The notes: generated from the letters alone by a model not told the origin. Positions 2,663 through 20,735 are shown, counted from the first letter of the stretch. The stretch: 64,000 bases of DNA from an uncultured delta proteobacterium (GCA_963708295.1 CAVPSJ010000017.1:32001-96000); one strand, 5' to 3'. Program-made: numbers and translations.

Positions 2663-2862
2663 CATTATGTGGAAATCTGTTTCTAATGGTTTAAAGAGAT
2701 TGAATAGAGGAAGACAAATCGTGCTGTTGCCTCCAAGTTTATTTAAAACTCCCCGATTCTATCTTCATTTTATTGATAGTAAAATTTGGCGAGCACACCT
2801 ACTTATCTGCGAAGCGAGCCAACCTCGAACCTTGATGATTACGGAAAGAAACGAAGTATAAC
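2663..2862 (+). repeat. Inter-cassette element copy E2, ending in an attC-like half site
   Basis: TTGATAGTAAAATTTGGCGAGCACACCTAC (35 bp start to start) TTGATGATTACGG...GTATAAC, followed by GCCGGAGTTAATCTGC. Confidence 0.8.
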
Positions 2863-2931
2863 GCCGGAGTTAATCTGCCCGCCGCCACATTCAGTAGACG
2901 ACAAGATTTCTCCTTTCTATTCAGAAGGACT

Positions 2932-3378
2932 TTATAGGCCCACCGGCATGTCGTAAGGATGCGGACGGCCTTTGCCCGTCTCGACAAATTCCTTGAGGCT
3001 AAGCAGGAAAAGCACCCAGTGCATCGAGGACTGAGGGAACACTTTGGCATCCTCGCGCCATTTTGAGTGGCGAAGGTGAAGAAACGTTTTGTCGCCTTCG
3101 CGGAAGATTTTCCATTCAATTTCGGTGTTGACCCAATCAGGATCGCTCCGCTCAGTTGCGCGCCACCGCACGAGTTCATCAACCTTCAGAGTGGTTACAA
3201 CCATCTCCTTTAACAATTTCCCATAAAACCAGAATTCCAATTTCTTCCCGACGGCAGATTCCCCCCGCGTCTCGGTGGTCCACCAATGCGCAAGCTTTTT
3301 CACATCGGTTAACGCTTGGTAAAGCTCGCCTGGGGAAGCTTTGATAATAATTTCATGCCAGATTTCACGATATGCCAT
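2932..3378 (-). CDS. SRPBCC/AHSA1 (START-like) domain protein
   Basis: HEIIIKASPGELYQALT...LAHWW...W..FL.SLKEFVETGKGRP is typical of AHSA1. GGAGG RBS. Confidence 0.85.
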   Translation of the reverse strand: MAYREIWHEIIIKASPGELYQALTDVKKLAHWWTTETRGESAVGKKLEFWFYGKLLKEMVVTTLKVDELVRWRATERSDPDWVNTEIEWKIFREGDKTFLHLRHSKWREDAKVFPQSSMHWVLFLLSLKEFVETGKGRPHPYDMPVGL

Positions 3379-3544
3379 TGAAAACACCTCCTTTGGTTTA
3401 CCGCACTTTCCTTTTAAATTCCCGACCGCTTAATAAGAAAATGTCCATACTACTCCGAAAAATCAAGTATGACAATTCAATAGTATCCTATTGTTAAAAG
3501 CGCTCCCAACTCGATTTCAGATTTCTTCATGAAATTATACCATT

Positions 3545-3700
3545 GATTCACGCTTGAAAATGTTGTATCGAAGACTGAAAATTAGAAAACAAGACTTCAG
3601 GAAGTTATCTTCGGAAAAAGGGATGCGGATAACACCTACGAATGTTCGCTCCAAGGTATCTCGGATGGTTAGCGATTACGGATAGAAATCTTTATGAATA
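3545..3700 (+). repeat. Inter-cassette element copy E3 (complete A-B-C-D)
   Basis: TGAAAATGTTGTAT, TTCAGGAAG 41 bp later, ACACCTAC, TTAGCGATTACGG 35 bp later. Confidence 0.8.
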
Positions 3701-3764
3701 AAAGGCAGGGCATCATTCCTCACTTTATGCCTTTGGGTTATGACACCAATCTATTTCTTTCCTG

Positions 3765-5063
3765 CTATTGAGGAGGCTTGATCTCTCTTTTCAGTTCATC
3801 CAACCAGTACCCGTTCTTGTGGTCATACGTTCTTACCACGACCTTGTCAGGATAAAGATACAAGGAGTTAGTCCAAAGATTATGGTGGACTTTCCCACCA
3901 GAATGATTTTCCGCCATAATGCTTGCCCCCGTCATGTCAGGGTTTGGAATAACGACGACCCGTCGTTCGTACTGATTAATCTTATGATTAAAACTCTCAT
4001 GGGTCGGTGCAATATGGACGTGGCCTGATACCCAAAGAAATATCTGAGGATTGTCTTGAATAACGTTATGAATCTTCCTCCGTGGCTGGGCGATACCAGA
4101 CTTGTCGTCGTCAATGAATAAAGTATTACCAATTTTAAAATTACCCCGCAAGGTCCCCTTTAATGGTGCATGAAAGAAAATGATTGTAGGAACGTCTTTG
4201 TTCTTCTTTAGCTCTGACTGCCACCAATCAATCTGCTTTCCTGACATTTCACAAACATTGTCTGAGTATAGGTCGTCCACTGACAAAAAGATAAGATGGT
4301 AGGGGCCGACTCTTTTGCTGTAAAAAATCTCCTGCAATGAAAAGGTTTCTTTGAACCGTTCGAGTTTTCTTTTCCGGATGGAGTAATTGGCAGATACTCT
4401 TTTTCCTGGGGAATTATCTTCATAATGATAATCATGGTTTCCAACGATTGGGTAAAAGGGCTTTTTTAACTGGCTCAGAAATTTCTTGGCATAAGCGTAT
4501 TCTTCAATAGTTCCATGCTCCTCACATATATCTCCCGTAGCCACAGCCATATCTACGTCAGGCCAGGAATTGATGTCTTCGATTGCCTTTTCCTTCATTG
4601 TGGCGTTTTTTCCGGGAAGGTGAAGGTCAGAGAGAACAACAATCCGGTGATAGTTTTTCTCTTTCGATTCCGGTTGGCTCACCAATTTTATTTCGCCCGA
4701 AAGGCTGCTACTTTCGTTGCCATCTTTATCTTTCACCCAAATCTTCACAATCCGATAGGGTTTATGTTCCTGTGAAATCACTTTCCATCGGAGGGGGATC
4801 AGTCCCTTTTGTTTCTCTTTGATATCTGGCCGGATTGGATATTCGACAACATCTTTTTTCATCTCACCGTTTTGGGTTTCCCAGGTGTTCTCAATAAAAG
4901 CCTTGTCAACGTTCCCCTCAAATTCAACGGTGATAGTAAACCATTCTCCTATGACCACAGGATCTGTTAAGAACCGTAGATTGGATATCTTGGGGAGTTC
5001 AGCCTGAGCCTGCACAAAGGTACTTAATAGCAATATCAGAGCAAAAAAGATCGTCCTTTTCAT
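3765..5063 (-). CDS. Secreted calcineurin-like metallophosphoesterase with an N-terminal beta-rich domain
   Basis: Signal peptide MKRTIFF...AQA; motifs DLH, GD, GNHD, FHAP, SGHVH. Confidence 0.85.
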   Translation of the reverse strand: MKRTIFFALILLLSTFVQAQAELPKISNLRFLTDPVVIGEWFTITVEFEGNVDKAFIENTWETQNGEMKKDVVEYPIRPDIKEKQKGLIPLRWKVISQEHKPYRIVKIWVKDKDGNESSSLSGEIKLVSQPESKEKNYHRIVVLSDLHLPGKNATMKEKAIEDINSWPDVDMAVATGDICEEHGTIEEYAYAKKFLSQLKKPFYPIVGNHDYHYEDNSPGKRVSANYSIRKRKLERFKETFSLQEIFYSKRVGPYHLIFLSVDDLYSDNVCEMSGKQIDWWQSELKKNKDVPTIIFFHAPLKGTLRGNFKIGNTLFIDDDKSGIAQPRRKIHNVIQDNPQIFLWVSGHVHIAPTHESFNHKINQYERRVVVIPNPDMTGASIMAENHSGGKVHHNLWTNSLYLYPDKVVVRTYDHKNGYWLDELKREIKPPQ

Positions 5064-5226
5064 TTCATCCGACCTCCAGATTCGATTCAACATGGTTACT
5101 AAAGCGAGCATTGATTTGGTTTTTCGAGTGAGTCACTTTGGGTAATTTGAATATCAAAATATATTGGACTTGTCAAATATAGAATTCGGTTAGGTTTAAC
5201 CATGGAAGACGGCACTCGAAATCATT

Positions 5227-5410
5227 GAATACCGGTTGAAATGTTGCAATATACTGTGAAATTGGAAAATCACTCTTTCAGGAAGGAGGCCTTGAAAAGG
5301 GGATTACTTGTTTGACCTACTACATTGCAATGGGGAGACGATCTGGGAGTTGATGATTTCCGTTAGAAAGAAAGTATAACGGACTACTAAGCCGCGTTGG
5401 CTCGAGCGGC
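5227..5410 (+). repeat. Inter-cassette element copy E4 plus attC-like relic
   Basis: Full block order with 41-bp and 35-bp spacings. Ends GTATAAC-GGACTAC-TAAGCCGC...GCGGC. Confidence 0.8.
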
Positions 5411-5479
5411 GAGTTAGATTCATCTCTGCCGTATTTAGTTTGTATCGGTGTTTGGATCCTTTCCTCGGCGTGTTTTCCC

Positions 5480-6373
5480 CTATCGCTTCCCCGGGTCCTC
5501 AATGGCTTTTAAGAATTTGGACTGGAGCTCCGGATCATTCAGGTCCAAGATACCCCAGATCAATCTTCCCTTCCAGAAAAGGTCTACGTCTCCATGGTAG
5601 CGATCCTTCAACCGGTAGGCCCCCTCGGAGACTGTCTTCCCCTCGTTTCCGGTCTGCTTAAGGTATTTTTCCATCATCCCGCGGCAATCCCCCGCATCCT
5701 TGCCCTCGATCACAAAGATCTTGAATTTCTTGTCGCCGACTTCGTAGTCGGCCGTGTAACCGGAATGGAGATAGGAGTACCCCAGGAAGTCTTTGGAAAC
5801 GAACTTTTCCGTGTTCTTCTTCATGCCTTCCCGCGGAAACGAGGAGAGGATCTTGGGAAGGGCAGATTTCCCGCCCAGAATCCCCTCCATCTTCCGACCG
5901 AAGGCGAGCATGGTCCGCTCATCCTCCGCCCCGGTGTTGTATCCGTTGATCTTCACGTAGTAGGGGCCGACCACGAAATTCAGGACGTTCGGCTCCTGAT
6001 AGCCCTGAGCCCCGATGTCCAGAAACCTGGCGTTGGCCAGCCGCTCCTGGCTGTAGATCCCAAAGGCCTGGGTGGAATCGCCGTGTCGGTACACTTCGAC
6101 CGTCACCGCGGCTTTCCCTTCCCCTTTATACTCCGCCACGTTCAGATCCTGGAATTCATAGGTCAGGTAGAGGTCCGCCGCCCCATTGATGTATTCATAG
6201 AGCGTCCGGGGGGAGAAGACCTGGGGTTCTCCATCCTGCTTCCACCCGCCCACTTCCGGGAAGACGAGGGTCTTCTCATCCCCCATCGCTGCCCCCTCCC
6301 AAAGAGTGCCCCCCAACAACCAAAATAGGAAGAGGAGCAGGCGGAATGTGCTCTTCGATTTTAGCCCGTTCAT
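5480..6373 (-). CDS. Exported protein, DUF6599-like
   Basis: LYEYINGAADLYLTY and AFGIYSQER motifs, signal peptide; commonly found next to Tat aldo/keto reductases. Confidence 0.7.
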   Translation of the reverse strand: MNGLKSKSTFRLLLFLFWLLGGTLWEGAAMGDEKTLVFPEVGGWKQDGEPQVFSPRTLYEYINGAADLYLTYEFQDLNVAEYKGEGKAAVTVEVYRHGDSTQAFGIYSQERLANARFLDIGAQGYQEPNVLNFVVGPYYVKINGYNTGAEDERTMLAFGRKMEGILGGKSALPKILSSFPREGMKKNTEKFVSKDFLGYSYLHSGYTADYEVGDKKFKIFVIEGKDAGDCRGMMEKYLKQTGNEGKTVSEGAYRLKDRYHGDVDLFWKGRLIWGILDLNDPELQSKFLKAIEDPGKR

Positions 6374-6397
6374 ACTCTTTCCCTTTCTTCCTCCCGA

Positions 6398-7603
6398 TCA
6401 GGCGATAAATTCAGAGGGAACGTCCCGGAGGCGGACGATGTTCCGCAGCCGCTCGGAAACATTCCACTGGTTCAAGCACTTGACCGGGCACGAACCGCAG
6501 TCCCCGCAGGGATTCGCGGGAAGGTTCAGGGAGGACAGCAGATCCTGGGCCTCGACCAGATTCCGGTACCCGTAGAGGTACATGTAGGCTCTCATCAGGT
6601 CCGGAATCGGGAGTTGCTTCACGCAGGCGGTGAGACAGGTTCCGCACCCCTGGCAGTACAGACCCGACTGGAGGGCGGCCAACCGGAGGTTCTCCTTCTC
6701 GGCCTTTGAGAGGGAGAAATCTCTCAGGACCTTCACATCCACCTCCAGTTGATCAAAAGTGGTGAATCCGGTGATGATGGTATGAACGTTGGCGTCCTGC
6801 AGGGCCCACTTGAGGCACGCCGGCGCGTCGATCTGCGTGTTATGGTAGGAGCCCCCTACGTTGCCCCCGATGGTCTTCATGGCGATGACCCCCAGCCCCG
6901 CCTCTGCCGCCCGGGCAATGGCTTTCTTGACCTCTTCGCCATGCTTCTGCCTGAAATTGTAGGCCGGCAGAACCACGTCATAGACCTTGGAGTCCACCGC
7001 GGCATTGATGATCTCGGGTTCATTCCGGTGGGTGGTAATTCCGATGAAGCGGATCTTGCCCGCTTTCTTGGCTTTCACCAAAGCGTTCAAAACCGGCTCA
7101 TAGAGAGCGGTCTCCTTCACCCAAACTCCGTGGTGGTGGTAGATGTCTATATAATCCAGCCCCAGGCTCCTGAGGCTGGTATCGATCTTCTGGGCGTAGG
7201 CTTCTTCCGTGGCTTCTTCCGTGTAGAGGCCGGTCGTCTGGTTAATGGCGAGGCGGGCTTTGGTGGCGATGGCGAAGGAATCCCGGGGACGGCCCTTGAG
7301 AACTTCGCCGATCATGGATTCATTCGTGCCCCGCTGGTAGGTTTGAGCGGTATCCAGGTAGTACAAGCCGTTACTCAAGGCCGCACGAACGAGCGCCGGA
7401 TTACTGGTATTCATGACCCCCATGGTGATGACCGGGAGTTTCATCCCTGTCTTTCCCAGGGTACGGTAGGTGATTTTCTCTTCTTTCTTCTCCTGGCCTT
7501 TCGCCGGCGAGCTCTTTTCGTTGGCGCCGAGATAGACGAATCCTCCCAACCCGGCGGCCGTGGACTTCAAGAAATCCCTTCTGCCCATTCCCTTCTTGCT
7601 CAT
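6398..7603 (-). CDS. Tat-signal aldo/keto reductase with a C-terminal Fe-S binding domain
   Basis: GRRDFLK twin-Arg motif, YRTLGKTG, LDTAQTY, C-terminal CQGCGTC...C and CGDCGSC...C. Confidence 0.9.
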   Translation of the reverse strand: MSKKGMGRRDFLKSTAAGLGGFVYLGANEKSSPAKGQEKKEEKITYRTLGKTGMKLPVITMGVMNTSNPALVRAALSNGLYYLDTAQTYQRGTNESMIGEVLKGRPRDSFAIATKARLAINQTTGLYTEEATEEAYAQKIDTSLRSLGLDYIDIYHHHGVWVKETALYEPVLNALVKAKKAGKIRFIGITTHRNEPEIINAAVDSKVYDVVLPAYNFRQKHGEEVKKAIARAAEAGLGVIAMKTIGGNVGGSYHNTQIDAPACLKWALQDANVHTIITGFTTFDQLEVDVKVLRDFSLSKAEKENLRLAALQSGLYCQGCGTCLTACVKQLPIPDLMRAYMYLYGYRNLVEAQDLLSSLNLPANPCGDCGSCPVKCLNQWNVSERLRNIVRLRDVPSEFIA

Positions 7604-7884
7604 CCCTGAACCCTCCATTCCCTTCCAGGCGATTACCCGGCCCTAAGGCCGGCTGGACCTCCACTTATAAAAAAAGAAAAACCCTTCCCCGTGTTAAAAA
7701 AGATGCCTTTACCGATCTTCGGATGTGCCCAAGGAAGCAAATCCGAAGATTGCTGACAGGGATTCAAAATGATCGCTTAAAGAATAATTTAACACTACCC
7801 CTCTCTTCTATCAAGGCATTATCTGGCCCCTTCAAGAGAAGAATGTCGCGCGGAGGAAAGTCTTAGGCCAGTATTCGAGATAAG

Positions 7885-7997
7885 GATTACCAAAATGAAA
7901 TCTTGTATCATGGTCGAAGTCTGTCAGCCAACGATTACAGGAAATACTAAATGGAATTTCCTTTTTGAGATATTTGGAGCAGGTTGATAGTAAAATC
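7885..7997 (+). repeat. Inter-cassette element copy E5, fused to the 3' end of the PIG-L-like gene
   Basis: GATTACCAAAATGAAATCTTGTAT, TACAGGAAATACTAAATGG 41 bp later, ...GAGCAGGTTGATAGTAAAAT. Confidence 0.8.
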
Positions 7998-8763
7998 CGG
8001 TCCAGAGGGTTGACGCCCAGTTCAGGAAAGTCGCCGTAAGCTCAGGGGTGGAAGCGACGGGTCGGTGCGCCTGATAGGCTTCTCGGACCGACCGGAAAGT
8101 CTTCGGATCGAAGTATCCCTCGATCGTGGGAAGCCCGAGCTCGCTTGCCACGTGCACCTGCCGTGATTGGCCGTCGGCGTCGCGTAGCACCCGGATACCA
8201 GGAGCCCAGACGTCGAAGCCCGTTTCCACTGCCCGCTTTCTCACCGCGATGTTGACTAGGCGATGCTGCACATGGCCGTATTCCCCCCAATTGTTGTGTG
8301 TGATCACACGTTTGATCGGTGGCGCAAAGTAGGGTCGAAGGTGAGGCTTGATGGTCGCCAAGTTAACAATTGGGGCACGCTTGCAGAAATCAGTGAAGAC
8401 CTCGGCCCAAATGTCGTTGTCGACGGACCCCCAGATAGGAGTCCATCGCACGCGATAATTAAGCTCTGCGGGGAGGCTCTGGACGAGATCCTGAAATACT
8501 GGCGCGGCGGGGTAAGCTGCAAGAAGAAACTTGGTTGCAACGGGCCAGAATGGTAACATCCAGAGCACGTCGTCGTCCTGGTGGGCAAAGACAACGAGGG
8601 TCTGGCCATCGCTGAAGATCGCGACTGACTCTTGACCTCCATCTGTTGCGCGGAGTGTGCTCTGAGCAGATTTAGGTTTATAGTCTTTATGAGTGGAAGC
8701 ACATCCAAATAAAAAAACTGAAATGGAAATAAGCAATATCATGAGAAGCAATTTTTTATACAT
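7924..8763 (-). CDS. Lipoprotein with a PIG-L/LmbE-like deacetylase domain, 3'-truncated
   Basis: Lipobox LFGC; AHQDDD and THNNWGEYGHVQH motifs; the last ~24 codons come from element E5. Confidence 0.7.
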   Translation of the reverse strand: MYKKLLLMILLISISVFLFGCASTHKDYKPKSAQSTLRATDGGQESVAIFSDGQTLVVFAHQDDDVLWMLPFWPVATKFLLAAYPAAPVFQDLVQSLPAELNYRVRWTPIWGSVDNDIWAEVFTDFCKRAPIVNLATIKPHLRPYFAPPIKRVITHNNWGEYGHVQHRLVNIAVRKRAVETGFDVWAPGIRVLRDADGQSRQVHVASELGLPTIEGYFDPKTFRSVREAYQAHRPVASTPELTATFLNWASTLWTGFYYQPAPNISKRKFHLVFPVIVG

Positions 8764-8880
8764 ATTAACCTCTTTTTCTATATTGAAGGTATGGTTTCGG
8801 ATCGAATAGGCTTTGAGTTATCAATAATTTCCTTCTTCAGTAATTGTATCAGTTAAATTCGCAGCCACAATCTTTATCAC

Positions 8881-10269
8881 TCAAAAACCGGCAACATCAC
8901 CGACACCACTACGAAGTGAGAACCATGCAAGCTGGAGAAACGTGTCGTCTGGCTTCCGTGTGTATTTCACTTCACCGATTTTCATTGAGCCCGATTTGTC
9001 CAACATATTCGTCCCGCGGATCTTCCAGGCGTTGACGATATAAGAGCTGATCCGGTTGGAGGCGCCCCTTTCGCTTCCCGTAAGGCTGTTGCGAACTGCG
9101 ACGGCCAGATCCTTATATATCACCCGCACCGTACCGCTTGCACGGCCTGCAGTCACATTGACATCAAATGTTGCATTTTGAAGGATACCGGATTTGATAC
9201 GCAAGCTTTCGCCAACTTCAAGGAAGGAATTGAGTCTGGTCAAGTCCATGAGATCCAGTGAGCCCGAGTATCGGAACGAGATGTCAGGGGATGCGACCGG
9301 AATAACCATGAGGATTTTCATCGTACTGGTCTTCATAAAGTTCCCCTGCGCGTGAACGACTGCAGTAGCAGCAGGGGCGGCATGATTGGTAATCCCTTCT
9401 GCCAACATCTGTATTGAATCAAACGTCACCTCGGCTGGCGCCGAGCCGATGATATACCTCTCTGCGTACTTCAACCGCCCATTCATGATGTTCAGGCTAT
9501 CGACCTGTGTAATTTTCTTTATCGATGAAAGAGCTTCGTTCGGCATCAGGGGTTTTGAAGCGTTCATGTTGTAGGGCGTGTCCATGTTGACCAAAATATC
9601 GAAGGACGCATCGTTGACTTTCACCGAATGAGCACGGTAGGTCTTCCCTTGCAGCAGTCCGAGACAGTCCGCACCCGTTACTCTGCTTTGAGGAAGAACG
9701 ATCCGGAATCGGGTCCTTCTGAACTTGCTACCTGCAAAGAATTTATCATCTTCGACCAAGGGATGAAGCTCCAATGCCTCAGCCAATATCTCTGAATCTG
9801 GTACCGATACACGCAGCCGTGCACACCGAAGTTCATACTGTGACTGCCGAAAGTTCAGCGCAATTTCTCGTGCCTCTGCAACGGAGCCGTTAAAGTCTTT
9901 AGGAGCAATATCTCCTCGCCCAAGAATCTGCAGCCAACCCATCCCGCTCACAGAGAACTTAGCAATACTGCACGAAAAGGTAGAATCAATCGACGTTAGT
10001 GCTATGGAGTCGCATCCGATGCGGTTCTTCCATATACTGTAATGCACGCCTGCAATCCGTATCGAGTATGCTGGATACGCTCTCGTGAATGCCTTTATGA
10101 TTTGGTTTTTGAGGTACCCGTTGATATATGTACCAGGAAAGAAAAGCAGTACCAGCGCACAAATGAGTACAACGACCCCGACAGCAAGGCCGGCATACGC
10201 CGTGACTTTTCGCAGTGACAGCTTACTCCGGTTGGCCGGTCCATGATTCATCGGCATCGGTATCATCAA
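8881..10269 (-). CDS. Membrane-anchored AsmA/DUF748-like protein
   Basis: Single N-terminal TM helix, beta-rich body, C-terminal YTRKPDDTFLQLAWFSL. Confidence 0.6.
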   Translation of the reverse strand: MMIPMPMNHGPANRSKLSLRKVTAYAGLAVGVVVLICALVLLFFPGTYINGYLKNQIIKAFTRAYPAYSIRIAGVHYSIWKNRIGCDSIALTSIDSTFSCSIAKFSVSGMGWLQILGRGDIAPKDFNGSVAEAREIALNFRQSQYELRCARLRVSVPDSEILAEALELHPLVEDDKFFAGSKFRRTRFRIVLPQSRVTGADCLGLLQGKTYRAHSVKVNDASFDILVNMDTPYNMNASKPLMPNEALSSIKKITQVDSLNIMNGRLKYAERYIIGSAPAEVTFDSIQMLAEGITNHAAPAATAVVHAQGNFMKTSTMKILMVIPVASPDISFRYSGSLDLMDLTRLNSFLEVGESLRIKSGILQNATFDVNVTAGRASGTVRVIYKDLAVAVRNSLTGSERGASNRISSYIVNAWKIRGTNMLDKSGSMKIGEVKYTRKPDDTFLQLAWFSLRSGVGDVAGF

Positions 10270-10380
10270 CCTTCTTTCTTTTTTTCGGTACCCACATAGA
10301 CCTTTTAATGGACGACCGTTGATAAGAACTCGCTTTTGGATGAATTAAGAATATAAAAGAGGGAGCTGTATGTCAATAAA

Positions 10381-10611
10381 GAACCGATGATTAAATTCAG
10401 CCGCGAAGCGGGTGCAGATAAGGTCTAAAACGGGCTTGGACTTGGCGGAGAGAATAAGGAAGCTACGAGAAACCCTTCCCTAAATTGCGATTTCAAAGGC
10501 TTGAGTCGAGAGCGCCCCAAGAACTCAAGAAGCCTTATCAAGTTTACTTAAATAACTTAAGAATGCCCCGTGAAGAGTGTAGGCCTGATATTCAAGCTTT
10601 TCTTCTTAGCA
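10381..10611 (+). repeat. ~230-bp direct repeat copy 1 (relic of a RAYT/IS200-like transposase 3' end)
   Basis: Aligns with 11211-11450 and encodes NSAAKRVQIRSKTGLDLAERIRKLRETLP*. Confidence 0.7.
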
Positions 10612-10629
10612 ACGGTACGAGCAGGGGAG

Positions 10630-10944
10630 TTACTTTTTGCTTAAACTCTTGACATAATCAACGATGGTTATGATCTGGTCCTTGGTAAGCACTTTCTCGA
10701 AGCTGGGCATTTTGTCCTTGCCCTTTTCGATGATCGCGATCATCTCGGCCTTGTTCATCTGACTGGCGGGCAGGTAGAGTTTCGTAGGATCAATATTCAA
10801 CATTTTCGCCCTTCTCGTATTCGTCTTGGCATCACCCCCGTGGCAAGTTGTGCACTTAGCCTTGTAGTCAGCCTTGCCATCGGCGAGGGCGATCATGGGT
10901 GTGGCGAACACAATAAGAACGAGCGAGATCAACAATTTTTTCAT
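10630..10944 (-). CDS. Monoheme class I cytochrome c
   Basis: Signal peptide, CTTCH, GKDKMPSF (Met ligand). Confidence 0.9.
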   Translation of the reverse strand: MKKLLISLVLIVFATPMIALADGKADYKAKCTTCHGGDAKTNTRRAKMLNIDPTKLYLPASQMNKAEMIAIIEKGKDKMPSFEKVLTKDQIITIVDYVKSLSKK

Positions 10945-11091
10945 TGTCTCTCCTTCCTTTTTTGATCATTATAATATATCTAATACAAGAAACATGTAGA
11001 GTCAACAAAATCAGGTATGCCACCTCCTTGATCCACCCTCAATGTGTGTTTGACATGCTAAGTTAGAGTTCTGCCATTTCGTATTTCGCCT

Positions 11092-11160: not shown

Positions 11161-11210
11161 TGCGGGGAGTCTGGCAACATTTGGGGAAACGCTGTGGCTT
11201 GGGATGACCC

Positions 11211-12199: not shown

Positions 12200-12320
12200 T
12201 ATTACAACTTGGAATCTTGTTTGGAATCGAGATTTCCAAAAATCAGGACTTCAGAAAGTAAGCGAGCGAGGACGATATTACCCAAATTCTGGGAAGCGGC
12301 AAGAGCTATGAATAAAAGGC
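12200..12320 (+). repeat. Inter-cassette element copy E8
   Basis: TTGGAATCTTGT, TTCAGAAAG 41 bp later; ends TATGAATAAAAGGC as copy E3 does. Confidence 0.7.
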
Positions 12321-12416
12321 TTAATTAATACGTCTTAAAAGTAAAGATGTTTGGCGGATAGAGAAAAATAGCGAGTTTAAATTCTTTGGATTAAAATAGC
12401 AGAGGAGGTAAAAAAA

Positions 12417-12755
12417 ATGAAAAGAATTGTATTAATAGGCACTTTATTGCTGGTCTTTGTCCTGACAGCCGGCACAGCTTCGGCTCGGGTCATTTTGCCT
12501 CCCGGGTGGCCTTTCCTCCCACCAATCATCACTCCCCCGGTAATTGAAGCACCTCCCCCAGCTTATTACCCCGATACTTATGGCTATTACTCATACCCCT
12601 ATGGTTATTATGGTTCTCGGAGTCCGGGTTACTGGGGTTATGGTGGACGGGGTTATTATGGTTCTCGGGGTCCGAGTTACCGGGGTCATGGGGGAAGGGG
12701 TTATTATGGTTCTCGGAGTCCAAGTTACCAAGGTCATGGGGGGTATCGCCGATAG
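12417..12755 (+). CDS. Secreted Pro/Gly/Tyr-rich protein with 3 x 16-aa tandem repeats
   Basis: GGAGG RBS, signal peptide, 48-bp repeats at 12603, 12651 and 12699 (GYYGSRxPxYxGxGG). Confidence 0.75.
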   Translation: MKRIVLIGTLLLVFVLTAGTASARVILPPGWPFLPPIITPPVIEAPPPAYYPDTYGYYSYPYGYYGSRSPGYWGYGGRGYYGSRGPSYRGHGGRGYYGSRSPSYQGHGGYRR

Positions 12756-13006
12756 CACTTTTTCCGATCAACTGCACTATATAATGACGGAATCGTACCA
12801 TTCTCCACCTTCATTGACTTGAATCGGGTGGGTCGGGTTTTTGGGTTTGAGCGGGTTAAAATTAGATTAGCTAGGCTCATTTTAAGGGGAGCAGATGAGA
12901 GGTTTCTCAATTAACAAAAACCTATGTCTTTATTATTGGCTGAGAAAGAGAGTTAGAAAGAGGCAAACCTATAGGGTGTCCAATACTCTCGAAAAGGTTA
13001 TCCTGA

Positions 13007-13145
13007 TTTTTGGAAGAGAATATATACAACTTTTTTGAGATTTGTCGAGCAGGTTGATAGTGAAATTTGGCGACTTCAGCTACAAACCGTGAGGATCAGT
13101 CTCCATTAAGGGTTGATGATTTCGGATTGAAAGACAGGGTACAGC
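13007..13145 (+). repeat. Inter-cassette element copy E9
   Basis: GAGCAGGTTGATAGTGAAATTTGGCGACTTCAGCTAC, then TTGATGATTTCGG 35 bp later. Confidence 0.8.
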
Positions 13146-13253
13146 AATGTCTGAATAGTCTTCCGCAAACTTAACAAGCACCAATGGTAGAGGTTGTCTT
13201 ACCTACTCCCCCTTTTTGGTTCGCTATCGCTATGGTCTTCATTTTCTACCCCG

Positions 13254-13499
13254 TTATTGGTAAGGTGTTATCTTTCCTTCCCGAACATCTTTAAAAAACT
13301 TCTCGATGAGGTCCGTTCTCTCTTCCTCTGATTCGCAGGTTTCTACTATCTCCATTAATTCCACTAACACTTTTTCATTAACAGCCCTCATTTTTCTCCC
13401 TGTCGCTGTAAATATCTTTCTCGCAATTTCCGTCGCTTCTTTTTTCCGCTTCATTTCTCCCATCAATTCGTCTAACTTATCATCAACACTTTTTCCCAT
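13254..13499 (-). CDS. Hypothetical helical protein
   Basis: 81-aa charged ORF with GAGG RBS. Confidence 0.6.
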   Translation of the reverse strand: MGKSVDDKLDELMGEMKRKKEATEIARKIFTATGRKMRAVNEKVLVELMEIVETCESEEERTDLIEKFFKDVREGKITPYQ

Positions 13500-13611
13500 G
13501 CCTCTTGTTCCTCCATATGTAAGCCCTGGTTACTCTCTTTGCTGTATTTACTTAGTTTACACATGCTAAGATTTATAACCAAATATGAATGGAAGCGTCA
13601 ACTAAACTATT

Positions 13612-14224
13612 GATTACCATTTGGAAGAGCGTATCGAAGGACAAAAACCACTCTTTCAGCTTACTAAATGAAATTTCATTTTCGAGATTCTTGGAGCAGG
13701 TTGATAGTAAAATTTGCTGACTTCACCTCCTACTCTTTGAGTATGTTATAAGGGTATAGGAATGGGTTTAGCTCATTCAAAAGGAAGAGGCAGGAGGACT
13801 TGAGTTTCACCTGGGTCATTGAATCCTCTTTGTAGTGTGTCCCTGCCTCCCCAAGCCATGATAGGTTGGTTGGGTCAAAGAACCCTTGTGATGATGGAGG
13901 TTTGGTGGGGAGGCATTTCCTGCCCTTCCGATCAGCAGGCTATCCAAGAGAGGCAACCGTCATGTGAGGCGTGTGATTTTCCTGATGACCCTTTGTGCGG
14001 TGAGAAGCCGTAATATCTTTAGGGAGTACTTCGTCAAGAGAAAAGAAGAAGGCCTGCCGCCCAAGAAGGCTATCCTTGCTACTGCTCACAAACTGCTGAG
14101 AGTTCTTTTTGCCAGGCTAACCCGTAAATCTTACTTTCGAACGGAGGTGGTTGAAGCATAGTTGACTACAAAGAGTGGGGATGATGCTGTTCAGAAGTTG
14201 AGGATCTCGGATGAAAGTGTGTAT
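13612..14224 (+). repeat. Inter-cassette element copy E10, interrupted by an IS110 relic
   Basis: A-B-C blocks at 13612-13733; the D block TTGAGGATCTCGGATGAAAGTGTGTAT resumes at 14198. Confidence 0.75.
13739..14176 (+). mobile_element. Internally deleted IS110-family element (non-coding left end plus transposase C-terminus)
   Basis: 13964-14161 encodes FREYFVKRKEEGLPPKKAILATAHKLLRVLFA, an IS110 C-terminal signature. TTGACT near the right end; GAGT at both ends. Confidence 0.75.
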
Positions 14225-14234
14225 GTTGTGAGCT

Positions 14235-15299
14235 TCAATTTTGTCTCCCTGAAGCCTTACGAAGATCATCAAGGAAGTCTCCTGGAATTTGAAAACCTAA
14301 TTCTTCCGCCCTGGTAACATCCTCCCAAGACTTGTCATATTTTCCCTTAGAATAATAGGCTTTCGCCCGATTGTAATAGAGCAACCCGAAATAAGGATCG
14401 ATCTCCAGGGCCTTGTTATAATCCGAGATCGCCAGATCATATTGACGTTCCATCGCATAAGCAGCTCCCCGATTCGTGTAAGCCAAAGTATATCTGGGGT
14501 TGATCTCTAAGGCTTCGTTATAGTTCGAGATGGCTCGACCATATTGCTGTTTCAACGAATAAACCCATCCCCGATTGTTATAGGCTTCTGCAAACCTTGG
14601 GTTGATCTTCAGGGCATTATTGTAATCAGCGATGGCCTGCTCATATTGGCCGGTGCTGCGATAGGCATTTCCGCGATTGTAGTAGGTTTCTGCATCTCCT
14701 GGGTTGATCTTCAGGGCCTCGTTATAATCCGAGATCGCCAGATCATATTGAAGTTTCTTCGCATAGGCAATCCCCCGATTCCTGTAAATCAGCGTACGTC
14801 TCGGATTGATTTTCAAGGCCTTGTTATAATCCGAGATCGCAAGGTCATATTGACCTTTATTATGATAGGCATCTCCCCGATTGTTATAGGCCTCAGCAAA
14901 TCCCGGGTTGATCTTCAGGGCATTATTGTAATCAGCGATGGACAGATCAAATTGGCCTTTGCTGTAATAGGCAATCCCCCGATTGTTATAGGCTTCAGCA
15001 AATCTCGGGTTGATCTTCAGGGCATTATTGTAATCAGCGATGGCCTGGTCAAATTGGCCTTTGCTGCGATAGGCATCTCCCCGATTGTTAAAGGCTTCAG
15101 CAAATCTCGGGTTGATCTTCAGGGCATTATTGTAATCGAGGATGGACAGATCAAATTGGCCGTTGCTGTAATAGGCAATCCCCCGATTGTTGTAGGCCTC
15201 AGCATTCCTCGAGTTGATCTCCAGGGTCGTTGTTTCAGTTTTTTCAGGGATAGTCTGACAGCCAACGATTAAAGAAACGGCCATAACTAAAATCGTCAA
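14235..15299 (-). CDS. TPR-repeat lipoprotein
   Basis: Lipobox IVGC and ~9 near-identical 34-aa TPRs (AEAYNNRG...ALKINP). Confidence 0.9.
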   Translation of the reverse strand: MTILVMAVSLIVGCQTIPEKTETTTLEINSRNAEAYNNRGIAYYSNGQFDLSILDYNNALKINPRFAEAFNNRGDAYRSKGQFDQAIADYNNALKINPRFAEAYNNRGIAYYSKGQFDLSIADYNNALKINPGFAEAYNNRGDAYHNKGQYDLAISDYNKALKINPRRTLIYRNRGIAYAKKLQYDLAISDYNEALKINPGDAETYYNRGNAYRSTGQYEQAIADYNNALKINPRFAEAYNNRGWVYSLKQQYGRAISNYNEALEINPRYTLAYTNRGAAYAMERQYDLAISDYNKALEIDPYFGLLYYNRAKAYYSKGKYDKSWEDVTRAEELGFQIPGDFLDDLRKASGRQN

Positions 15300-15898
15300 T
15301 AGAGCAAAAAGTTTATTTCTCGTTTCCTTCTCCTTCTACTTCCTGCAATGCGCAGATAACTCATTCCTAATTGTATCAAGGTTTGGCCCGTTTAGGCTGG
15401 AGTGGCAAAGTCGGACAACATTGCTCCTAAATTTGGTAGTGTACTTGCACCGAGATGCGGATATTCCGCATCTGGCCGTGGATCAAAACGGCCCTCCACA
15501 TTCAAATCTTGTTAATATAATAAGGACTTGGTTTGGGATGGGTTGAATATACAAAAAAATGCAGCTCCAACGTCCTTGCACTTGTATTCCAGTCTATTCT
15601 TAGAGGGCAAGTACAACAATGGGTTCAATGCCGTATTTTGAGTTAAGAATGACTGCATTTTTGGGCTACAAATTATTGTAGGGGCAAGAAGTCGGATGTT
15701 ACCGTTCTATAGATATCCGCTTGACCATGTCGAGCGTAACCGCTCAATCTCGTTTTGGTTCTCCATGGCAATTCTCCATCCCTTGCTACCTCACACCAAT
15801 TCTAGGGAGAAGGACATGGGAAAACACAATACGTTATTGATCGATTTCCCGGCCCAAAATAGTGAATAGCTTGCCACCTGCACTTTACCCAAACTGAA

Positions 15899-16083
15899 GA
15901 TATCTATTTGAAATCTGCATTGGAAGGGAAGAGGGGCGTTTCATTGATTTCAGAAAGTACTAGATGAAATTTCCTTTTCGAGATTGTCGGAGCGGGGCGA
16001 TAGTAAGATTTGGCGAGTACACCTACCTATCTTCGATGTGAGCTAAGCTTCAACCTTGATGATTACGGGGAGAAAGATTGCAT
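15899..16083 (+). repeat. Inter-cassette element copy E11 (longest, about eight ~23-bp units)
   Basis: Units start at 15899, 15923, 15946, 15968, 15992, 16015, 16038 and 16061. Confidence 0.8.
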
Positions 16084-16147
16084 TGATAAGGTTTACACAG
16101 GTTTGCGGACTAGAGGAAGGAGTATTCAGAAAAAGGGGTTACGTTTC

Positions 16148-16558
16148 CTAAACTTTCTGATAGGATTTGACCAACCCTTCAAGCTCCATATGATTCAAAG
16201 AAGTCTTGACAAGAAAACGATCGGCCCCAAATCGGGAAGCTGCTTCCCGATATTCTGGTTTATCATAACTTGAAAGAATGAGAATGGTAATATTGGGATG
16301 AGTTGCTTTGATTTTCTTGGTGAGTTTCAGGCCATTTTCTCCGGGTAATCGAATATCCATGAAGATGAGATCTGGAAGGAATGTGTCGACTTTCTGCAAA
16401 GCCTCAATTCCACCTGCCGCCTCGTCAATGGCTGTCGTAGGAAGAGACGCTCGCAGAGTCGTCCTGAAGATTTGTCGAAAAGGATCATCATTATCCACTA
16501 TTAAGATTCTAAACTTCTTCATTGCTGCCGAGGGATTTATTTTCATAGCTTCCTCCAC
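16148..16558 (-). CDS. Single-domain response regulator (receiver)
   Basis: ILIVDND, PDLIFMDIRLPGENG, FLVK. Confidence 0.85.
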   Translation of the reverse strand: MEEAMKINPSAAMKKFRILIVDNDDPFRQIFRTTLRASLPTTAIDEAAGGIEALQKVDTFLPDLIFMDIRLPGENGLKLTKKIKATHPNITILILSSYDKPEYREAASRFGADRFLVKTSLNHMELEGLVKSYQKV

Positions 16559-16639
16559 CTCCCCGGAAAGATAAAATCTAGCTAAGCTTCTGGGGTTAAT
16601 AATACAGAAGATGAATCTTTTGTCAATCTCAAAATGAGG

Positions 16640-16845
16640 TTGTAATTATTAATAATTTATATAATTTACTAATTTTATTCTTATATTTATTATTTTACTA
16701 ATTTTATATATATAGTAACTAAATATAAAATAAAAATAATTAAAAATATTAAGTATAATTTTAGTGTTTTTAAAGTTATATATATAATTTAATTTTAATT
16801 TTTGTTTAATAATACAGATAATATATATGAATTATTAGTATATGA
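16640..16845. other. Extremely AT-rich tract
   Basis: About 200 bp of almost only A/T, with TTTACTAATTTTAT present twice. Confidence 0.8.
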
Positions 16846-16858
16846 AGGGAGGTAAAAG

Positions 16859-17128
16859 CTACGAACCGAATCTGTGAGCTGCGCGCAGGCGGGCTTTGGC
16901 GGCTTCAACCTCGCGATTCCTGGGAGAAGCGGTGGTCACGAGCGAGCCGAGCAATTTGGAGGAGGCCTTTGCGACTTCGTCGACCGCACGATGGAACGCG
17001 TCTTTGTTCGCAGCGGAAGGCTTAGCAAATCCGCTGATCTTCCGAACGAATTGCAGAGCCGCCATGCGGATCTCGTCATCCGTCGCCGGCGGTTCGAAGT
17101 TGTACAGCATCTTGATGTTTCTACACAC
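16859..17128 (-). CDS. DUF2277 family protein
   Basis: MCRNIK.LYNFEPPATDDEI..AALQFVRKISGF signature. Confidence 0.85.
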   Translation of the reverse strand: MCRNIKMLYNFEPPATDDEIRMAALQFVRKISGFAKPSAANKDAFHRAVDEVAKASSKLLGSLVTTASPRNREVEAAKARLRAAHRFGS

Positions 17129-17222
17129 GCTATTTGCCTCCGTAATCGGCTATCGTTGCGCAAGCCCTGGGCCTGGGCTCATCGTATGAGAAATGCCAAC
17201 TGATCTCGCGTCCGTGAATCGC

Positions 17223-17250
17223 CCCGAACGACGAGGTAAGTCGCCGAGCT
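17223..17250 (-). other. attC-like L'-R' half site upstream of DUF2277
   Basis: Minus strand CGGCGACTTACCTCGTC-GTTCGGG. Confidence 0.45.
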
Positions 17251-17414
17251 GCAGTCTTTGGATTTCAAACAACGGCTATTCTCGGAGCGCGAAAAAGGCA
17301 GAACCTTCACTTTGAGAGTCGAGAGGACCTTCACATCTGAGAGTCCAAGATAATTGAGGATCTTTAGATGAAGTAATTCCTAATTCTCAATTCCGGCAGT
17401 CCCTGTCGCCTCTT

Positions 17415-17771
17415 TCATATTCCAATGTTCGATAAGGTATTGCAGATCGAATTGACAATCCCCACAAGCTTAGGATGGGAATTCTCGAACCTTTCCACAG
17501 AGGTAGAAAGCCCCTCCAAGGATAGTTTGAAAAGTTGCGGATTCTTCTCCTCACGTATTGCTTCGTGAATTGAGACTTCGGTAAAACCGATAATACTCTG
17601 GGCGTCCTCGGCGTCGGTCTTGGAGAGTTGGGAAACTTCGGTCTTCAAAGTGGAAAGCAGATTTAGTAATTCCTTCTTTCTTTCGTCATTTAAAGACTTG
17701 GCCTTTTTGATCCTCGCTTCAATCTGGGTAATTGTCTCCTCGACCATATTTTCATCCTTTCTTCCAGGCAC
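17415..17771 (-). CDS. DUF4404-like small helical protein
   Basis: C-terminal FENSHPKLVGIVNSICNTLSNIGI. Confidence 0.75.
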   Translation of the reverse strand: MPGRKDENMVEETITQIEARIKKAKSLNDERKKELLNLLSTLKTEVSQLSKTDAEDAQSIIGFTEVSIHEAIREEKNPQLFKLSLEGLSTSVERFENSHPKLVGIVNSICNTLSNIGI

Positions 17772-18122
17772 TCAATAAGGGAAACTGATGAGGGTCTCTG
17801 GATCCCTTTCTGGAAGGAGCCAGGTAAGCACTTAATGACTCAGGGTGGCTTTGGATTCTAGGGCCCGCCCTCGTGCAATGATTAGAACTCGCTTTTGATT
17901 GTGTTAAATATACGAAAAAACGGAATTTTATGTCAAGCGAAAAGGACCACAAGATATGCATAGAAAGAAAGTTTTGTCAGGTTTTGAAATTACTTGACCC
18001 TTCCAAATCAAGATAGGTCAAGATAGAGTTAAATCCTCCTCTTCTACTTTTTAGATTAAAAACATTAAAATCAACCATTTTGTCAATCCCAAAAATGAGA
18101 TTGTGGAGATTATTGTTTGGAG

Positions 18123-18300
18123 GATTGTCATTTGAAATCTTGCATGTGCGGATGGTTTTTCAGAATCTCTCTTTCAGGAAGGAGTCTTCGTTTTCCCAAA
18201 TCCCGCCGATCAAAAAAACTATGTTGAAGTTTCACCTACCTATCTTCAGTGAAAGGATGATCAGGGAGTTGATGATTACGGGATGAAGCAAAGTGAGTTT
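18123..18300 (+). repeat. Inter-cassette element copy E13 (complete)
   Basis: TTGAAATCTTGCAT, TTCAGGAAG 41 bp later, CACCTAC, TTGATGATTACGG 35 bp later. Confidence 0.8.
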
Positions 18301-18410
18301 ATAAATCTCATTTTGTGGAAGAACGAAAAAGGGATGCAGTCCAATAGGCATGAGAGCTGCACCCCTTCCTTTCAAACTTACAAATCAATTCCCGAAAGAC
18401 TCCAATCAAA

Positions 18411-20222
18411 CTAATCTGGATTTATGGTCAGAGGAATATCGGACGCTTCTCCTCCCCAGCCCATGCCATAGGTACTTCCATCGGAAGAGTGAATAATCCA
18501 CCAGCCGCCATTGCTACTCTGGTAAATGGCGACATCCGTCTTTCCATCACCATCGTAATCCCCGGGCACAGGGGTGAATCCAGATCCGCCCCATCCCACT
18601 CCATAAGCCCCTACTTGCCCCTGTGGTCCAGTACCCGAAGAGGGAGTGATCCACCAACCACCGTTCGTGGTATTGTAGATGGCGATGTCTGTTTTTCCAT
18701 CCCCATCATAATCGCCGGGAACAGGTTTGAATGCTGATCCACCCCAGCCTATTCCATAGGCTGGAATGCCAGAAGAGGGAATGATCCACCACGCACCTCC
18801 CGTGGTATCATAGATGGCAATGTCTGTTTTTCCATCCCCATCATAATCGCCAGGAACAGGTTTGAAAGCTGATCCACCCCAACCCACTCCATAGGCCCCC
18901 ACTTGTCCTTGTGGCCCTACCCCTGAAGAGGGGATAATCCACCAGGCACCCGTTGTGGAATTGTAAATGGCAATATCGGTCTTTCCATCCCCATCATAAT
19001 CTCCAGGGACAGGTTTGAAAGCAGATCCACCCCAGCCTATTCCATAGGATGGAATACCAGAGGAGGGGATGATCCACCACGCACCGCCCGTGGTATCGTA
19101 AATTGCAATATCTGTTTTTCTATCTCCATCGTAATCTCCGGGAACGGGTTTGAATCCAGGTCCACCCCAGCCATAGCCATAGGCAGGAGAGCCTGAAGAA
19201 AGAGTGACCCACCAAACACCCGTGCTGGTACGGTAAAAGGCAATATCGGTCTTTAAATCACTGTCGAAGTCACAACTAATAGGCCTGCAACCACCAGGCG
19301 GCTTAAGATCGAAGACATACTGGAGGACCTCATGGGCCGCCTGTTCCGACCACATGACGGCGTTGGCTATCCTTTTGTCCAAAAGGACACCTTCATCGCC
19401 CTGTTCAATAATCCAATCCAAGCTAGGGAGGGGGGCTGGCCAGGCAAGTGCGGTGCTGTGCCGGTATGAAAGGAGGTCACTCTCCAAACTGATGGCGAAC
19501 GCGTCATCAGATGTGAAGCACCGACCAAAAATTCGAAAATCACTGAAACTCCAAGCCTTCGGTACGTAGTTAAAGTCGGTATTTTCCCAAACAAACTCAA
19601 GCTCCAAAGGCCAATCAACCTCCTGGTAACTGCCCCACAAAAGCGGTCCAAGGTGAGGAGGGTTGAGGAAGTCCTCTGCGAAATGCACGGCGTAGCCCGC
19701 ATGGACCATGGCTCGACTTCTGTTGTTATTGATTAAATCTTGCTTTGCCTTATCGGCCCAGTATTTTATCGGATTCCACACACTCAAATCTGCGAATTCG
19801 TGATTCATTAGGTTATCGAAGTCGTTTTCCCAGTCGTCTTTGAATGTGAAGCAAGGCTCATCGGTGCAACTATACCCAAATATGCCCAATTCGACTATGT
19901 CCCGACCTATCAATGCCTCGACCTGCAGGGCACCCTCCCACCACCAAGTGTTCTTAAGGCCAGGACCCGCCCCCCATATACCATCAGGTGTTGACGCTCC
20001 ATCCCTGAGGAGCTGCCGCTCTTCAGCAGAGAGATAGCCTGCCGGAAGCAAGTTGTTAGAATCCAACCAGAGGATCGCATTTTCCGCCATCATACCGTGT
20101 GCGCCTCCAGGGGGCACATCCGTCAAACCAAAGAGCGGCCCGGCCGACCACCCCTCTGCCCGCTGTTGAGTGCCCAATAAGCCAATCGCCACGCAAAGGA
20201 CTACCATTGAGGCGAGCCTCAC
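18411..20222 (-). CDS. Secreted Zn-dependent phospholipase C/S1-P1-like domain fused to FG-GAP/VCBS repeats
   Basis: Signal peptide ending AEG|W; H..., PD, HEF and GYAVHFAED..NPPH motifs; six GDYDGDGKTDIAIY-type repeats. Confidence 0.75.
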   Translation of the reverse strand: MRLASMVVLCVAIGLLGTQQRAEGWSAGPLFGLTDVPPGGAHGMMAENAILWLDSNNLLPAGYLSAEERQLLRDGASTPDGIWGAGPGLKNTWWWEGALQVEALIGRDIVELGIFGYSCTDEPCFTFKDDWENDFDNLMNHEFADLSVWNPIKYWADKAKQDLINNNRSRAMVHAGYAVHFAEDFLNPPHLGPLLWGSYQEVDWPLELEFVWENTDFNYVPKAWSFSDFRIFGRCFTSDDAFAISLESDLLSYRHSTALAWPAPLPSLDWIIEQGDEGVLLDKRIANAVMWSEQAAHEVLQYVFDLKPPGGCRPISCDFDSDLKTDIAFYRTSTGVWWVTLSSGSPAYGYGWGGPGFKPVPGDYDGDRKTDIAIYDTTGGAWWIIPSSGIPSYGIGWGGSAFKPVPGDYDGDGKTDIAIYNSTTGAWWIIPSSGVGPQGQVGAYGVGWGGSAFKPVPGDYDGDGKTDIAIYDTTGGAWWIIPSSGIPAYGIGWGGSAFKPVPGDYDGDGKTDIAIYNTTNGGWWITPSSGTGPQGQVGAYGVGWGGSGFTPVPGDYDGDGKTDVAIYQSSNGGWWIIHSSDGSTYGMGWGGEASDIPLTINPD

Positions 20223-20566
20223 CAGCCTGAATAGTCCGTGAGTTCGTAAAGTCTTCGTTTGCCTTCTCCTTCCGCGCCGTCACCGGCACTCACTTGTTTG
20301 TTGTTGCTGTTCAGCGTCCAGTTCAAGGACAGCCAGTTGTCATACAACAGGTCCTCAATCAGAGTCCAGAAGGTTTTCCTCGACAATTCGAATAATCGCT
20401 TCACGGATTGAAATGAACAATTATTATACTGCATTGTGTAATTTGTAAGAATCCTACCCATTCAGGTGCTTTTTGTCAATGAGAAATCAGGAAAGTCATG
20501 GGCTTCTCAGTATAGGGGCTGCCAATATAATCGGAAGGTTATCACAATTTGGGATTTTCTGCGAGC

Positions 20567-20722
20567 GAATAATTTCTTAAGAATGAAATGTTATATTGCG
20601 TGTCTATAATTCCTAAGGTCTATTATTCTGAGCATTCATCATTGAGGATTTCCGCCGAAAGAACGAATAACGGGTTCCTTAGCTGCAACGGTTAGCTGTT
20701 GGCGGAAAGATCAAGGTTAGGA
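20567..20722 (+). repeat. Inter-cassette element copy E14 joined to a degenerate attC
   Basis: Homologous to 22641-22744. Ends GAATAAC-GGGTTCC-TTAGCTGC; the R'' box TCCTAAC lies on the minus strand at 20716-20722. Confidence 0.65.
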
Positions 20723-20735
20723 ATTCCCGCCTTAT

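Follow-up and report, generated by a model that had tools for sequence, protein, structure and literature searches.

A conserved non-coding repeat is joined to integron attC sites at the G|TT crossover point in an uncultured delta proteobacterium and its relatives

The stretch of DNA analysed here (the window) comprises 64,000 nucleotides of an uncultured delta proteobacterium (GCA_963708295.1, CAVPSJ010000017.1:32001-96000). It corresponds to C17:32001-96000 of the assembly G000, which has 4.95 Mb in 20 contigs and is 91% complete; coordinates without a contig or locus name refer to the window. Positions 1..22760 form the right-hand part of an array of a non-coding repeat, the R repeat, that extends over at least 55 kb (C17:1-55475) and adjoins sites resembling attC, the recombination site of integron gene cassettes. 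All 24 R motifs of the array are on the plus strand, among unrelated, mostly minus-strand genes of varying G+C content. By a scan for open reading frames (ORFs), the sizeable ORFs from 1 to ~22,400 are all on the minus strand, apart from a plus-strand ORF that is described below.

Profile searches of the whole assembly defined the element as a 20-nt R motif plus a GTATAAC-type box, which together end a modular non-coding unit (the R unit). The R motif consists of TTGAnGATTACC, about four bases and GAAA, and the box follows about four bases further. A complete unit contains, in this order, an R motif, a box, a link of ~45 nt, a promoter-like half of ~70 nt that is well conserved, the sequence CACCTAC, a variable part of ~35 nt and a second R motif with its box. 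A 116-position profile found 50 copies at E<=0.001, and an R-plus-box profile gave 108 matches at E<=10 in the same genome, which puts the copy number of the unit at about 50-100.

The initial annotation had pointed out three junctions in the window at which the repeat ends in AAC and continues as attC-like sequence. The window reads as it described: the box is GTATAAC at 2856-2862 and at 5374-5380 and GAATAAC at 20665-20671, and each box is preceded by the conserved motif ending in GAAA plus four bases. On the 3' side of each box, a G and 6-8 further bases lead to TAATCTGC, TAAGCCGC or TTAGCTGC. The flank displays also bore out the claim that the likeness among the repeat copies breaks off at the box edge. 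At the first junction, an R motif with its box (2824..2862, plus strand; core 2832-2851, 22.7 bits) is followed by a possible decayed attC with an R' box and a weak L' (2856..2937, minus strand). The second junction ends an R unit at 5267..5380 on the plus strand (nhmmer element positions 6-116, 39.6 bits), with a CACCTAC-type box, a variable part, an R motif at 5350-5369 (32.4 bits) and the box at 5374-5380. The final 7 bases of this unit are the opposite-strand R' box of a 46-nt mini attC (5374..5419, minus strand). At the third junction, a weak R motif and box (20634..20671, plus strand; R motif 10.4 bits) lead into a 73-nt imperfect palindrome that ends in GTTATTC (20665..20737, minus strand). 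A promoter-like site lies upstream of this weak motif at 20583-20610 (promoter scan, 10/12 matches).

The attC likeness of these sites was scored with covariance models. Seeds were taken from the cassette arrays beside the genes of the integron integrase (IntI) in relatives, using a naive AAC...GTT hairpin scanner, and model R1 was built from 10 aligned attCs adjoining these genes, with the R''/R' and L''/L' pairs. In 119,541 bases of the relatives' integron loci, R1 gave 36 matches at E<=0.001. All of them were on the strand predicted by the orientation of the integrase and sites left out of the training were among them, indicating that the model recovers held-out attCs. R2, a home-made model like its predecessor, is R1 rebuilt on the 36 matches and was trained without the genome under study. 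R1 found a single match at E<=10 in the 64-kb window, a minus-strand site at 5374-5419 that fits the full model (18.6 bits, E 0.012). With filters off, R2 returned five matches at E<=10 in window 1-24000. Only 5374-5419 (18.1 bits, E 0.015) was below E=1, and the others were all at E 3.5 or above. No covariance-model match at E<=10 was obtained for the sites at 2856 and 20665, even by this search of window 1-24000, and R2 with filters off found nothing below E=5 in the 32 kb to the left of the window. A scan at relaxed threshold, suggested beforehand as a check on all three flanks, supported the site at 5374 and neither of the other two. The six candidates that the naive hairpin scanner listed in the array occur at the density of the genome background (458 in 4.9 Mb), and none of them is attC-like.

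The element at 5374-5419 is an attC. Its layout is R'' (ATCTAAC), a 5-nt spacer, L'' with one extrahelical C, a 5-nt loop, L', a spacer and R' (GTTATAC), and it lies 60 nt 3' of the stop of ORF 5480-6373, on the same strand. A paralogue of the same 46-nt length is found at C4:1133160-1133205 (28.8 bits with R2), and another 46-nt mini attC occurs in genome G001 (L082:964-1009, 27.1 bits). Half-sites were also scored alone. An nhmmer profile of 22 positions overlooked obvious sites, and a two-block weight matrix built from 33 L'-R' halves of the relatives was used instead, with 100,000 random 36-mers of the genome under study as background. The matrix scores were 20.8 bits at 5374 (p 1e-5), 11.0 bits at 2856 (p 9e-4) and 9.6 bits at 20665 (p 1.8e-3). 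When only L' was scored, to which the AAC box does not contribute, the p values were 1.2e-4, 0.048 and 0.029 at 5374, 2856 and 20665, respectively. GTT is found in all three sites, and the AAC of R'' is missing at 2856, where the far end is TTTATAG, and at 20665, where R'' is GAATAAG. The site 2856-2937 overlaps the stop of ORF 2932-3387, and the palindrome 20665-20737, which is attC-like in place and shape, begins at the stop codon of ORF 20736-21380. Both are imperfect palindromes, and a position on the preceding ORF's stop codon is common for attCs. The sites at 2856 and 20665 may be read as decayed attCs at best; by the covariance test they are not attCs. Therefore, the claim that all three flanks are reverse-complement L'-R' ends was right about the type of site and holds at 5374, and it is marginal at the other two.

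The same joint was found elsewhere in the genome. R2 was applied genome-wide to 150 of 1048 first-look candidates, on which the attC counts given here for this genome rest, and gave 29 matches. They include runs at C4:1007774-1012107 (six matches, beside a remnant of IntI), C6:65810-67740 and C12:87904-90545. At seven of the 29 attCs, the other strand carries an R motif with its GAAA ending 4-6 nt ahead of the R' box, whereas ~0.001 would be expected by arithmetic from 108 R matches in 2 x 4.95 Mb. These seven are the window site and the attCs at C4:1075458, C4:1133160, C8:167450, C12:119501, C17:401946 and C17:434304. Half-sites with p<=0.001 were present at 11 of the 108 R flanks against 0.108 expected. 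AACG was in register at 15/108 flanks, 12 of them with an L'-only p<0.05.

We also compared the junctions across relatives. In a genome of another genus with an intact IntI (G041), an R unit abuts a 57-nt attC (33 bits) within an array of 14 attCs. A sequence-only model of nine junctions (R3) matched 45 of the 68 genomes of the class, including the one under study; the others were 44 of 54 in family f1, none of eight in f2 and none of five in f3. The R module is spread over at least 18 genera. The locus with the top R3 match was examined in 29 other genomes. At 23 of these loci, R2 placed an attC on the other strand and its R' G at R3 position 46, although R3 carries 40 nt of the attC half and its best matches are biased to attC junctions; R2 demands the whole hairpin, which offsets this preference. 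The offset between R3 and R2 was 0 in 21 and 1 in 2 of the 23 loci, and the attCs there were 46-132 nt long. The prediction that such fusions are enriched in a larger set of copies was thus confirmed both within the genome and beyond it. These results bear on the possibility that the attC likeness arose by chance and that the repeat is an ordinary intergenic one. The failure of 2856 and 20665 in the covariance model and their marginal L'-only scores would suit it, and it is possible for these two sites taken alone. It is already refuted for 5374, by the model and matrix scores, and for the family-wide junction, by the excess of half-sites at the R flanks and the fixed register in 23 other genomes. 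As a general explanation it is very improbable.

The position of the joint is that of a cassette boundary. The core site of R' in an integron attC is GTTRRRY, and IntI strand exchange always takes place at G|TT. The attC has its top strand on the gene strand, which places the beginning of the repeat at the base just past G|TT, where the next cassette starts. The initial annotation had placed the join at the G|TT crossover and the conserved part downstream of the cassette, and both placements agree with the fixed position of the R' G and with the strand of the attCs. The boxes joined to R are GTATAAC, GTGTAAC, GGGTAAC and GCATAAC, and the R' boxes of the relatives are mostly GTTAGGC, GTTATGC or GTTATGT. 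This difference fits the view that the last six bases (TTAYNC) are of the R side. The six bases TTATAC would then move together with the R unit.

We somewhat favour the explanation that common cassettes, often ones without a gene, have R units as their contents, and that the junction is an ordinary cassette boundary made by the integrase and now fossil. The AAC flanks would be the L'-R' ends of integron attCs on the gene (minus) strand, one of them compact and fitting the model and two decayed at best, and the edge of the repeat would be the first base beyond the integrase crossover. The R unit would form the non-coding 5' portion of integron cassettes of one family, which has gene-less as well as gene-bearing members and is common in the bacterial family. 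IntI probably made the joins. Given that its exchange is fixed at G|TT, the same junction would arise whenever such a cassette follows any attC.

Three R units lie between two attCs. One is in the genome under study (C4:1073686-1075517, with a 399-aa ORF), one is in the array beside the intact IntI of G041 (L046:11996-13501, with 209-aa and 77-aa ORFs) and one is in genome G057 (L096:10013-10962). These three have the upstream G|TT and the downstream attC of their own that define a cassette; the R units of the window end at terminator-type hairpins instead. R-unit-plus-attC pieces of ~330-370 nt without an ORF >=80 aa were seen at C12:119185-119558 and C4:1120942-1121268, and a partial piece at C17:432432-432703. 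Furthermore, two junction loci were compared with relatives. At both, the block of cassettes, attC and R unit is inserted as a whole, and an R unit is lacking from the unoccupied site, where the gap in the relatives is 195-250 nt (read directly) at one locus and 18-40 nt at the other. R units are thus joined to attCs in a fixed register that recurs across the family, and some of them are bracketed by attCs.

Several observations weigh against the cassette explanation. No integron integrase above the NCBIfam cut-off was found in the 91%-complete assembly. The attC at 5374-5419 has an E of ~3 when judged against the whole genome, and its 46 nt are below the usual attC length range of 57-141 bp. 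The array C17:1-55475 holds one model-supported attC. A cluster of attC sites lacking an integrase (CALIN) needs at least two attCs close together, and with a single site that passes the model this is not an attC array. The bias of R3 towards attC junctions counts here as well. Of the 108 R copies, 101 are without a model-supported attC, and most of these are not accounted for by IntI. At loci with several attCs, there was no attC within 1.5 kb beyond the R unit in 6/7 cases. Moreover, the main promoter-like box of the R unit, which is considered below, was not listed by the simple promoter scan. Finally, among the attCs of this genome, 7 of the 16 scattered ones are joined to R and none of the 13 in arrays of at least three is (hypergeometric p ~0.007); in the IntI-linked arrays of relatives, R is joined to 1 of 33 attCs.

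The last of these observations is better suited by an acceptor site. The edge of the R-box would then be a preferred double-stranded target of IntI, of the attG or attI type and with its recognition part 3' of the crossover, and resident R units would capture free cassettes. The register is fixed, some R copies that have no attC also keep the GTT core at their edge, and an attC at a junction mostly closes a short run whose other attCs lie upstream. Integration of cassettes at genomic attG sites has also been published (Loot et al. 2024, as cited in the accessible part of PMC12614218). However, a resident acceptor is at odds with the R units inside attC-bracketed cassettes in three genomes and with most R copies having no cassette. 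Nor was an R-like motif found beside intI or attI in 12 IntI loci (best E 0.05, not adjacent), by which R was rejected as an attI. The absence of the R unit from the unoccupied sites is better explained if R is cassette content than if it is a resident acceptor. We therefore favour cassette content, and the proposal of the initial annotation that the edge accepts cassettes was not upheld as it stood; an acceptor role is doubtful.

We next considered whether R is a small mobile element, either similar to a miniature inverted-repeat transposable element or moved by a pair of Xer-like recombinases, that inserts just 3' of hairpins, be they terminators or attCs. When the edges of the 108 R copies were sorted, 7 abutted a model-supported attC, 40 another hairpin, 9 the link of another unit and 52 nothing recognisable. 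Hence 47/108 copies adjoin some hairpin at the same edge. Half of the 40 other hairpins carry an A-run and are good terminators for the upstream minus-strand gene, and the remaining 20 are of other kinds. Many of the A-run hairpins resemble one another and so seem to travel with R. A 3.4-kb module that encodes two Xer-like tyrosine recombinases (356 and 379 aa) and a small winged-helix ORF runs exactly from CACCTAC to the link. It is present outside the window in three full and two partial copies, all by R units, with the full or partial copies at C8:162450-165868, C5:98775-102192 and C12:1-2116 and fragments at C17:30878-31556 (~450 nt left of the window) and C17:393617-393856. The module is also multi-copy in genome G010, with four copies. 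Its homologues reach 84-90% identity, which suggests a horizontally mobile element.

Elements that target attCs exist, namely the group IIC-attC introns and IS1111-attC. However, the insertion point of these known attC-seekers is close to the attC's 5' end (PMC3001079), in contrast to the position of R at the R' crossover. R units showed neither terminal inverted repeats nor duplications of the target. The recombinases are absent from six R loci of relatives (L091-L096), and close homologues of them were present in 15 of 55 family genomes, as against 44 of 54 for R3; therefore, the recombinase module cannot be the general cause, and the pair was rejected as the enzyme of R. The exact coincidence with G|TT at 21/23 loci is what IntI would give. 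An origin of the junctions by insertion of a mobile element is unlikely.

The array itself could suggest another system. The R-box might be the recombination site of a second cassette-like system, in which the units of the 55-kb array end in an R-box and attC cassettes are occasional guests. The common orientation of all 24 R motifs among unrelated genes of varying G+C content is in line with this, as are the constancy of the R-box, the variability of the sequence after it and a comparable, attC-poor R array in G035, which is of another genus (6-7 R3 matches and 2 attCs in 20 kb). However, no recombinase co-varies with R, and unit exchange at the R-box between genomes was not seen. The contigs of four wetland DNA runs on 2500-22499 gave short pieces and joints between R-unit copies, as assembly-graph repeats also give, and the loose ends of these contigs at 5349 and 5442 match the C4 paralogue; the other samples thus provided repeat-type joints only. 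We regard a second system as quite unlikely.

Further R elements of the array are all on the plus strand. At 2174..2217, an A-run and a terminator-type hairpin (terminator scan 2240-2209, minus strand) come after an R motif, and another R motif followed by a hairpin was found with the R-motif profile at 3661..3694. A truncated unit at 7872..8000 has only the upstream R, the link and the promoter-like half (profile searches). R units were recorded at 13030..13134 (77.1 bits) and, in full length, at 15964..16077 (93.9 bits). A promoter-like half (model positions 1-75) is at 13666..13740 (65.7 bits) and a CACCTAC-to-R half at 18230..18288 (39.4 bits). The plus-strand ORF mentioned above, 12417-12755, is the sole sizeable one of its strand in this part of the array, and contains 24-nt Gly/Tyr-rich repeats at 12603-12746. 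A gene for a TPR protein on the minus strand (14235-15299) contains 102-nt tandem repeats at 14395-15204.

On its right side, the array borders on the first conserved core gene, pdxA (23476..24486, plus strand; TIGR00557 377.9 bits; synteny). This border gene had been considered as a candidate IntI, and the TIGR00557 match ruled this out. No such array is present beside pdxA in five of five relatives of the same genus, and in two of them pdxA directly follows the block found here at C4:1046779-1053114. The spacing between the core block and pdxA is 163-212 nt in G011 and G013 and ~10 kb in G010; in the genome under study the array accounts for at least 55 kb. The spot upstream of pdxA is variable (window 22760-23475; loci L024, L028 and L029 of relatives). 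Since the array is missing beside pdxA in the relatives, it is part of an island specific to this strain and located at this variable spot. The array may run on into the end of C4 if that contig abuts C17. Beyond pdxA, an unrelated REP-like dispersed repeat of ~36 nt occurs at ~25936-26090, with dozens of copies of 90-98% identity in all five relatives searched.

The search for an integrase with TIGR02249 gave 19 matches, and the best of them (86.4 bits, cut-off 265) is an 87-aa remnant on C4. This remnant is followed by six attC matches (18-59 bits) on the plus strand, and the region (C4:1007421-1012107) looks like a decayed integron; none of its six attCs is joined to an R repeat. IntI is frequent in the lineage (23/68 genomes of the class and 4/14 of the genus), in line with the cassette explanation. 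The IntI frames in loci L031-L042 of the relatives are 343-508 aa long, compared with 315 positions of the family model, and may carry an extra region. Because the assembly holds no intact IntI, the array of the window would be called a fossil.

What the R unit does may be suggested by its promoter-like box, TTGAGA-17-TAGTAA with an upstream TG, which has a weak resemblance to the consensus. The predicted box would fire away from its own cassette and across the upstream attC. The unit is thus a putative antisense promoter or small-RNA gene, for which the hairpin may serve as terminator, or it may be a protein-binding site; these proposals derive from sequence features. A search for RNA runs containing window 12900-20900 listed none. 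A structured RNA was rejected: Rfam had no matches in the window, no consensus fold was found in 46 copies, and the folding energies equalled those of shuffled sequences (mean z -0.33). The ...TTGAAAG end of the motif had suggested solitary CRISPR-like repeats, but genome-wide there were no arrays, and the only periodic match was a leucine-rich-repeat gene. A further short motif of the type GGTGTATATTAC (gene strand) recurs in the interval that separates the upstream R from the beginning of the following gene, at 5240-5262, at L097:4505-4525 and at G000 C4:1075270-1075300. It includes TATATT, which could be a -10 box of the sense strand.

Compared with known systems, the junction is closest in layout to an integron cassette boundary. 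The attC is on the gene strand right after an ORF, the next unit begins at TT, and 5374-5419 has the R''-spacer-L''-extrahelical base-L'-spacer-R' architecture of integron attCs. Unlike such a boundary, it lies in a genome without an intact IntI or attI, its 46-nt attC is the sole supported one in 55 kb, and the next unit opens with a conserved 30-nt motif and not with unrelated sequence. Sedentary chromosomal integrons of the Vibrio VCR type carry array-specific attC repeats at every cassette boundary. The R array likewise has a conserved repeat at the boundaries of a long co-oriented array, but this repeat is not the attC itself and has no hairpin signal.

Among published elements, Vibrio gene-less cassettes with sense or antisense promoter activity, which can silence the upstream cassette, are described in the accessible part of Blanco et al. 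2024 (PMC11014356). R units share with them a non-coding content and a promoter-like box aimed back at the upstream cassette, in our case by consensus resemblance. They differ from them, as far as that text extends, in that R is one family with many copies per genome in at least 18 genera and is also found upstream of genes and beside plain terminators. The attG integrations of Loot et al. 2024 likewise place attC cassettes outside the integron platform, joined at GTT. However, attG sites are characterised as widespread and non-classical in the available portion of PMC12614218, whereas the same 30-nt motif is present at each R join and the unoccupied sites of the relatives are without it. The group IIC-attC introns and IS1111-attC encode a reverse transcriptase or a (DEDD) transposase. 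According to the excerpt of PMC3001079, they resemble R in being associated with attCs, antisense to the cassettes and equipped with outward promoters (in R, a promoter-like box), and the IIC introns also occur after terminators. In contrast, R is at the 3' crossover, is 30-300 nt long and has no ORF. In the parts available to us of the literature on attC with group IIC introns, IS1111-attC, attG and ORF-less cassettes, we found no description of a fusion of an R-type repeat with attC.

To our knowledge, the usual account of an integron cassette is a gene lacking a promoter plus an attC, and the 5' end is not known to carry any conserved sequence. In the present case, cassettes from at least 18 genera begin in fixed register with a single non-coding module. 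This module also makes up long arrays in a genome that has no integrase, and it adjoins attCs as well as ordinary terminators. It is doubtful, as is the acceptor role, that the R-box is a recombination site in its own right, a double-stranded partner exchanged at the same G|TT by IntI or another recombinase. If it were, cassette-like arrays such as the present one (24 units over at least 55 kb) could be assembled from genes that have only a terminator hairpin, and any R unit could serve to capture true attC cassettes. This would be a route for building and dispersing arrays outside the attI platform, and possibly an intermediate in the genesis of cassettes. An edge that is a recombination target would bear on how cassettes spread outside integrons and on how genes gain recombination sites. 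If the R module is a regulatory cassette with an antisense promoter or a small RNA, it would be the first such sequence family that can be traced by comparative genomics.

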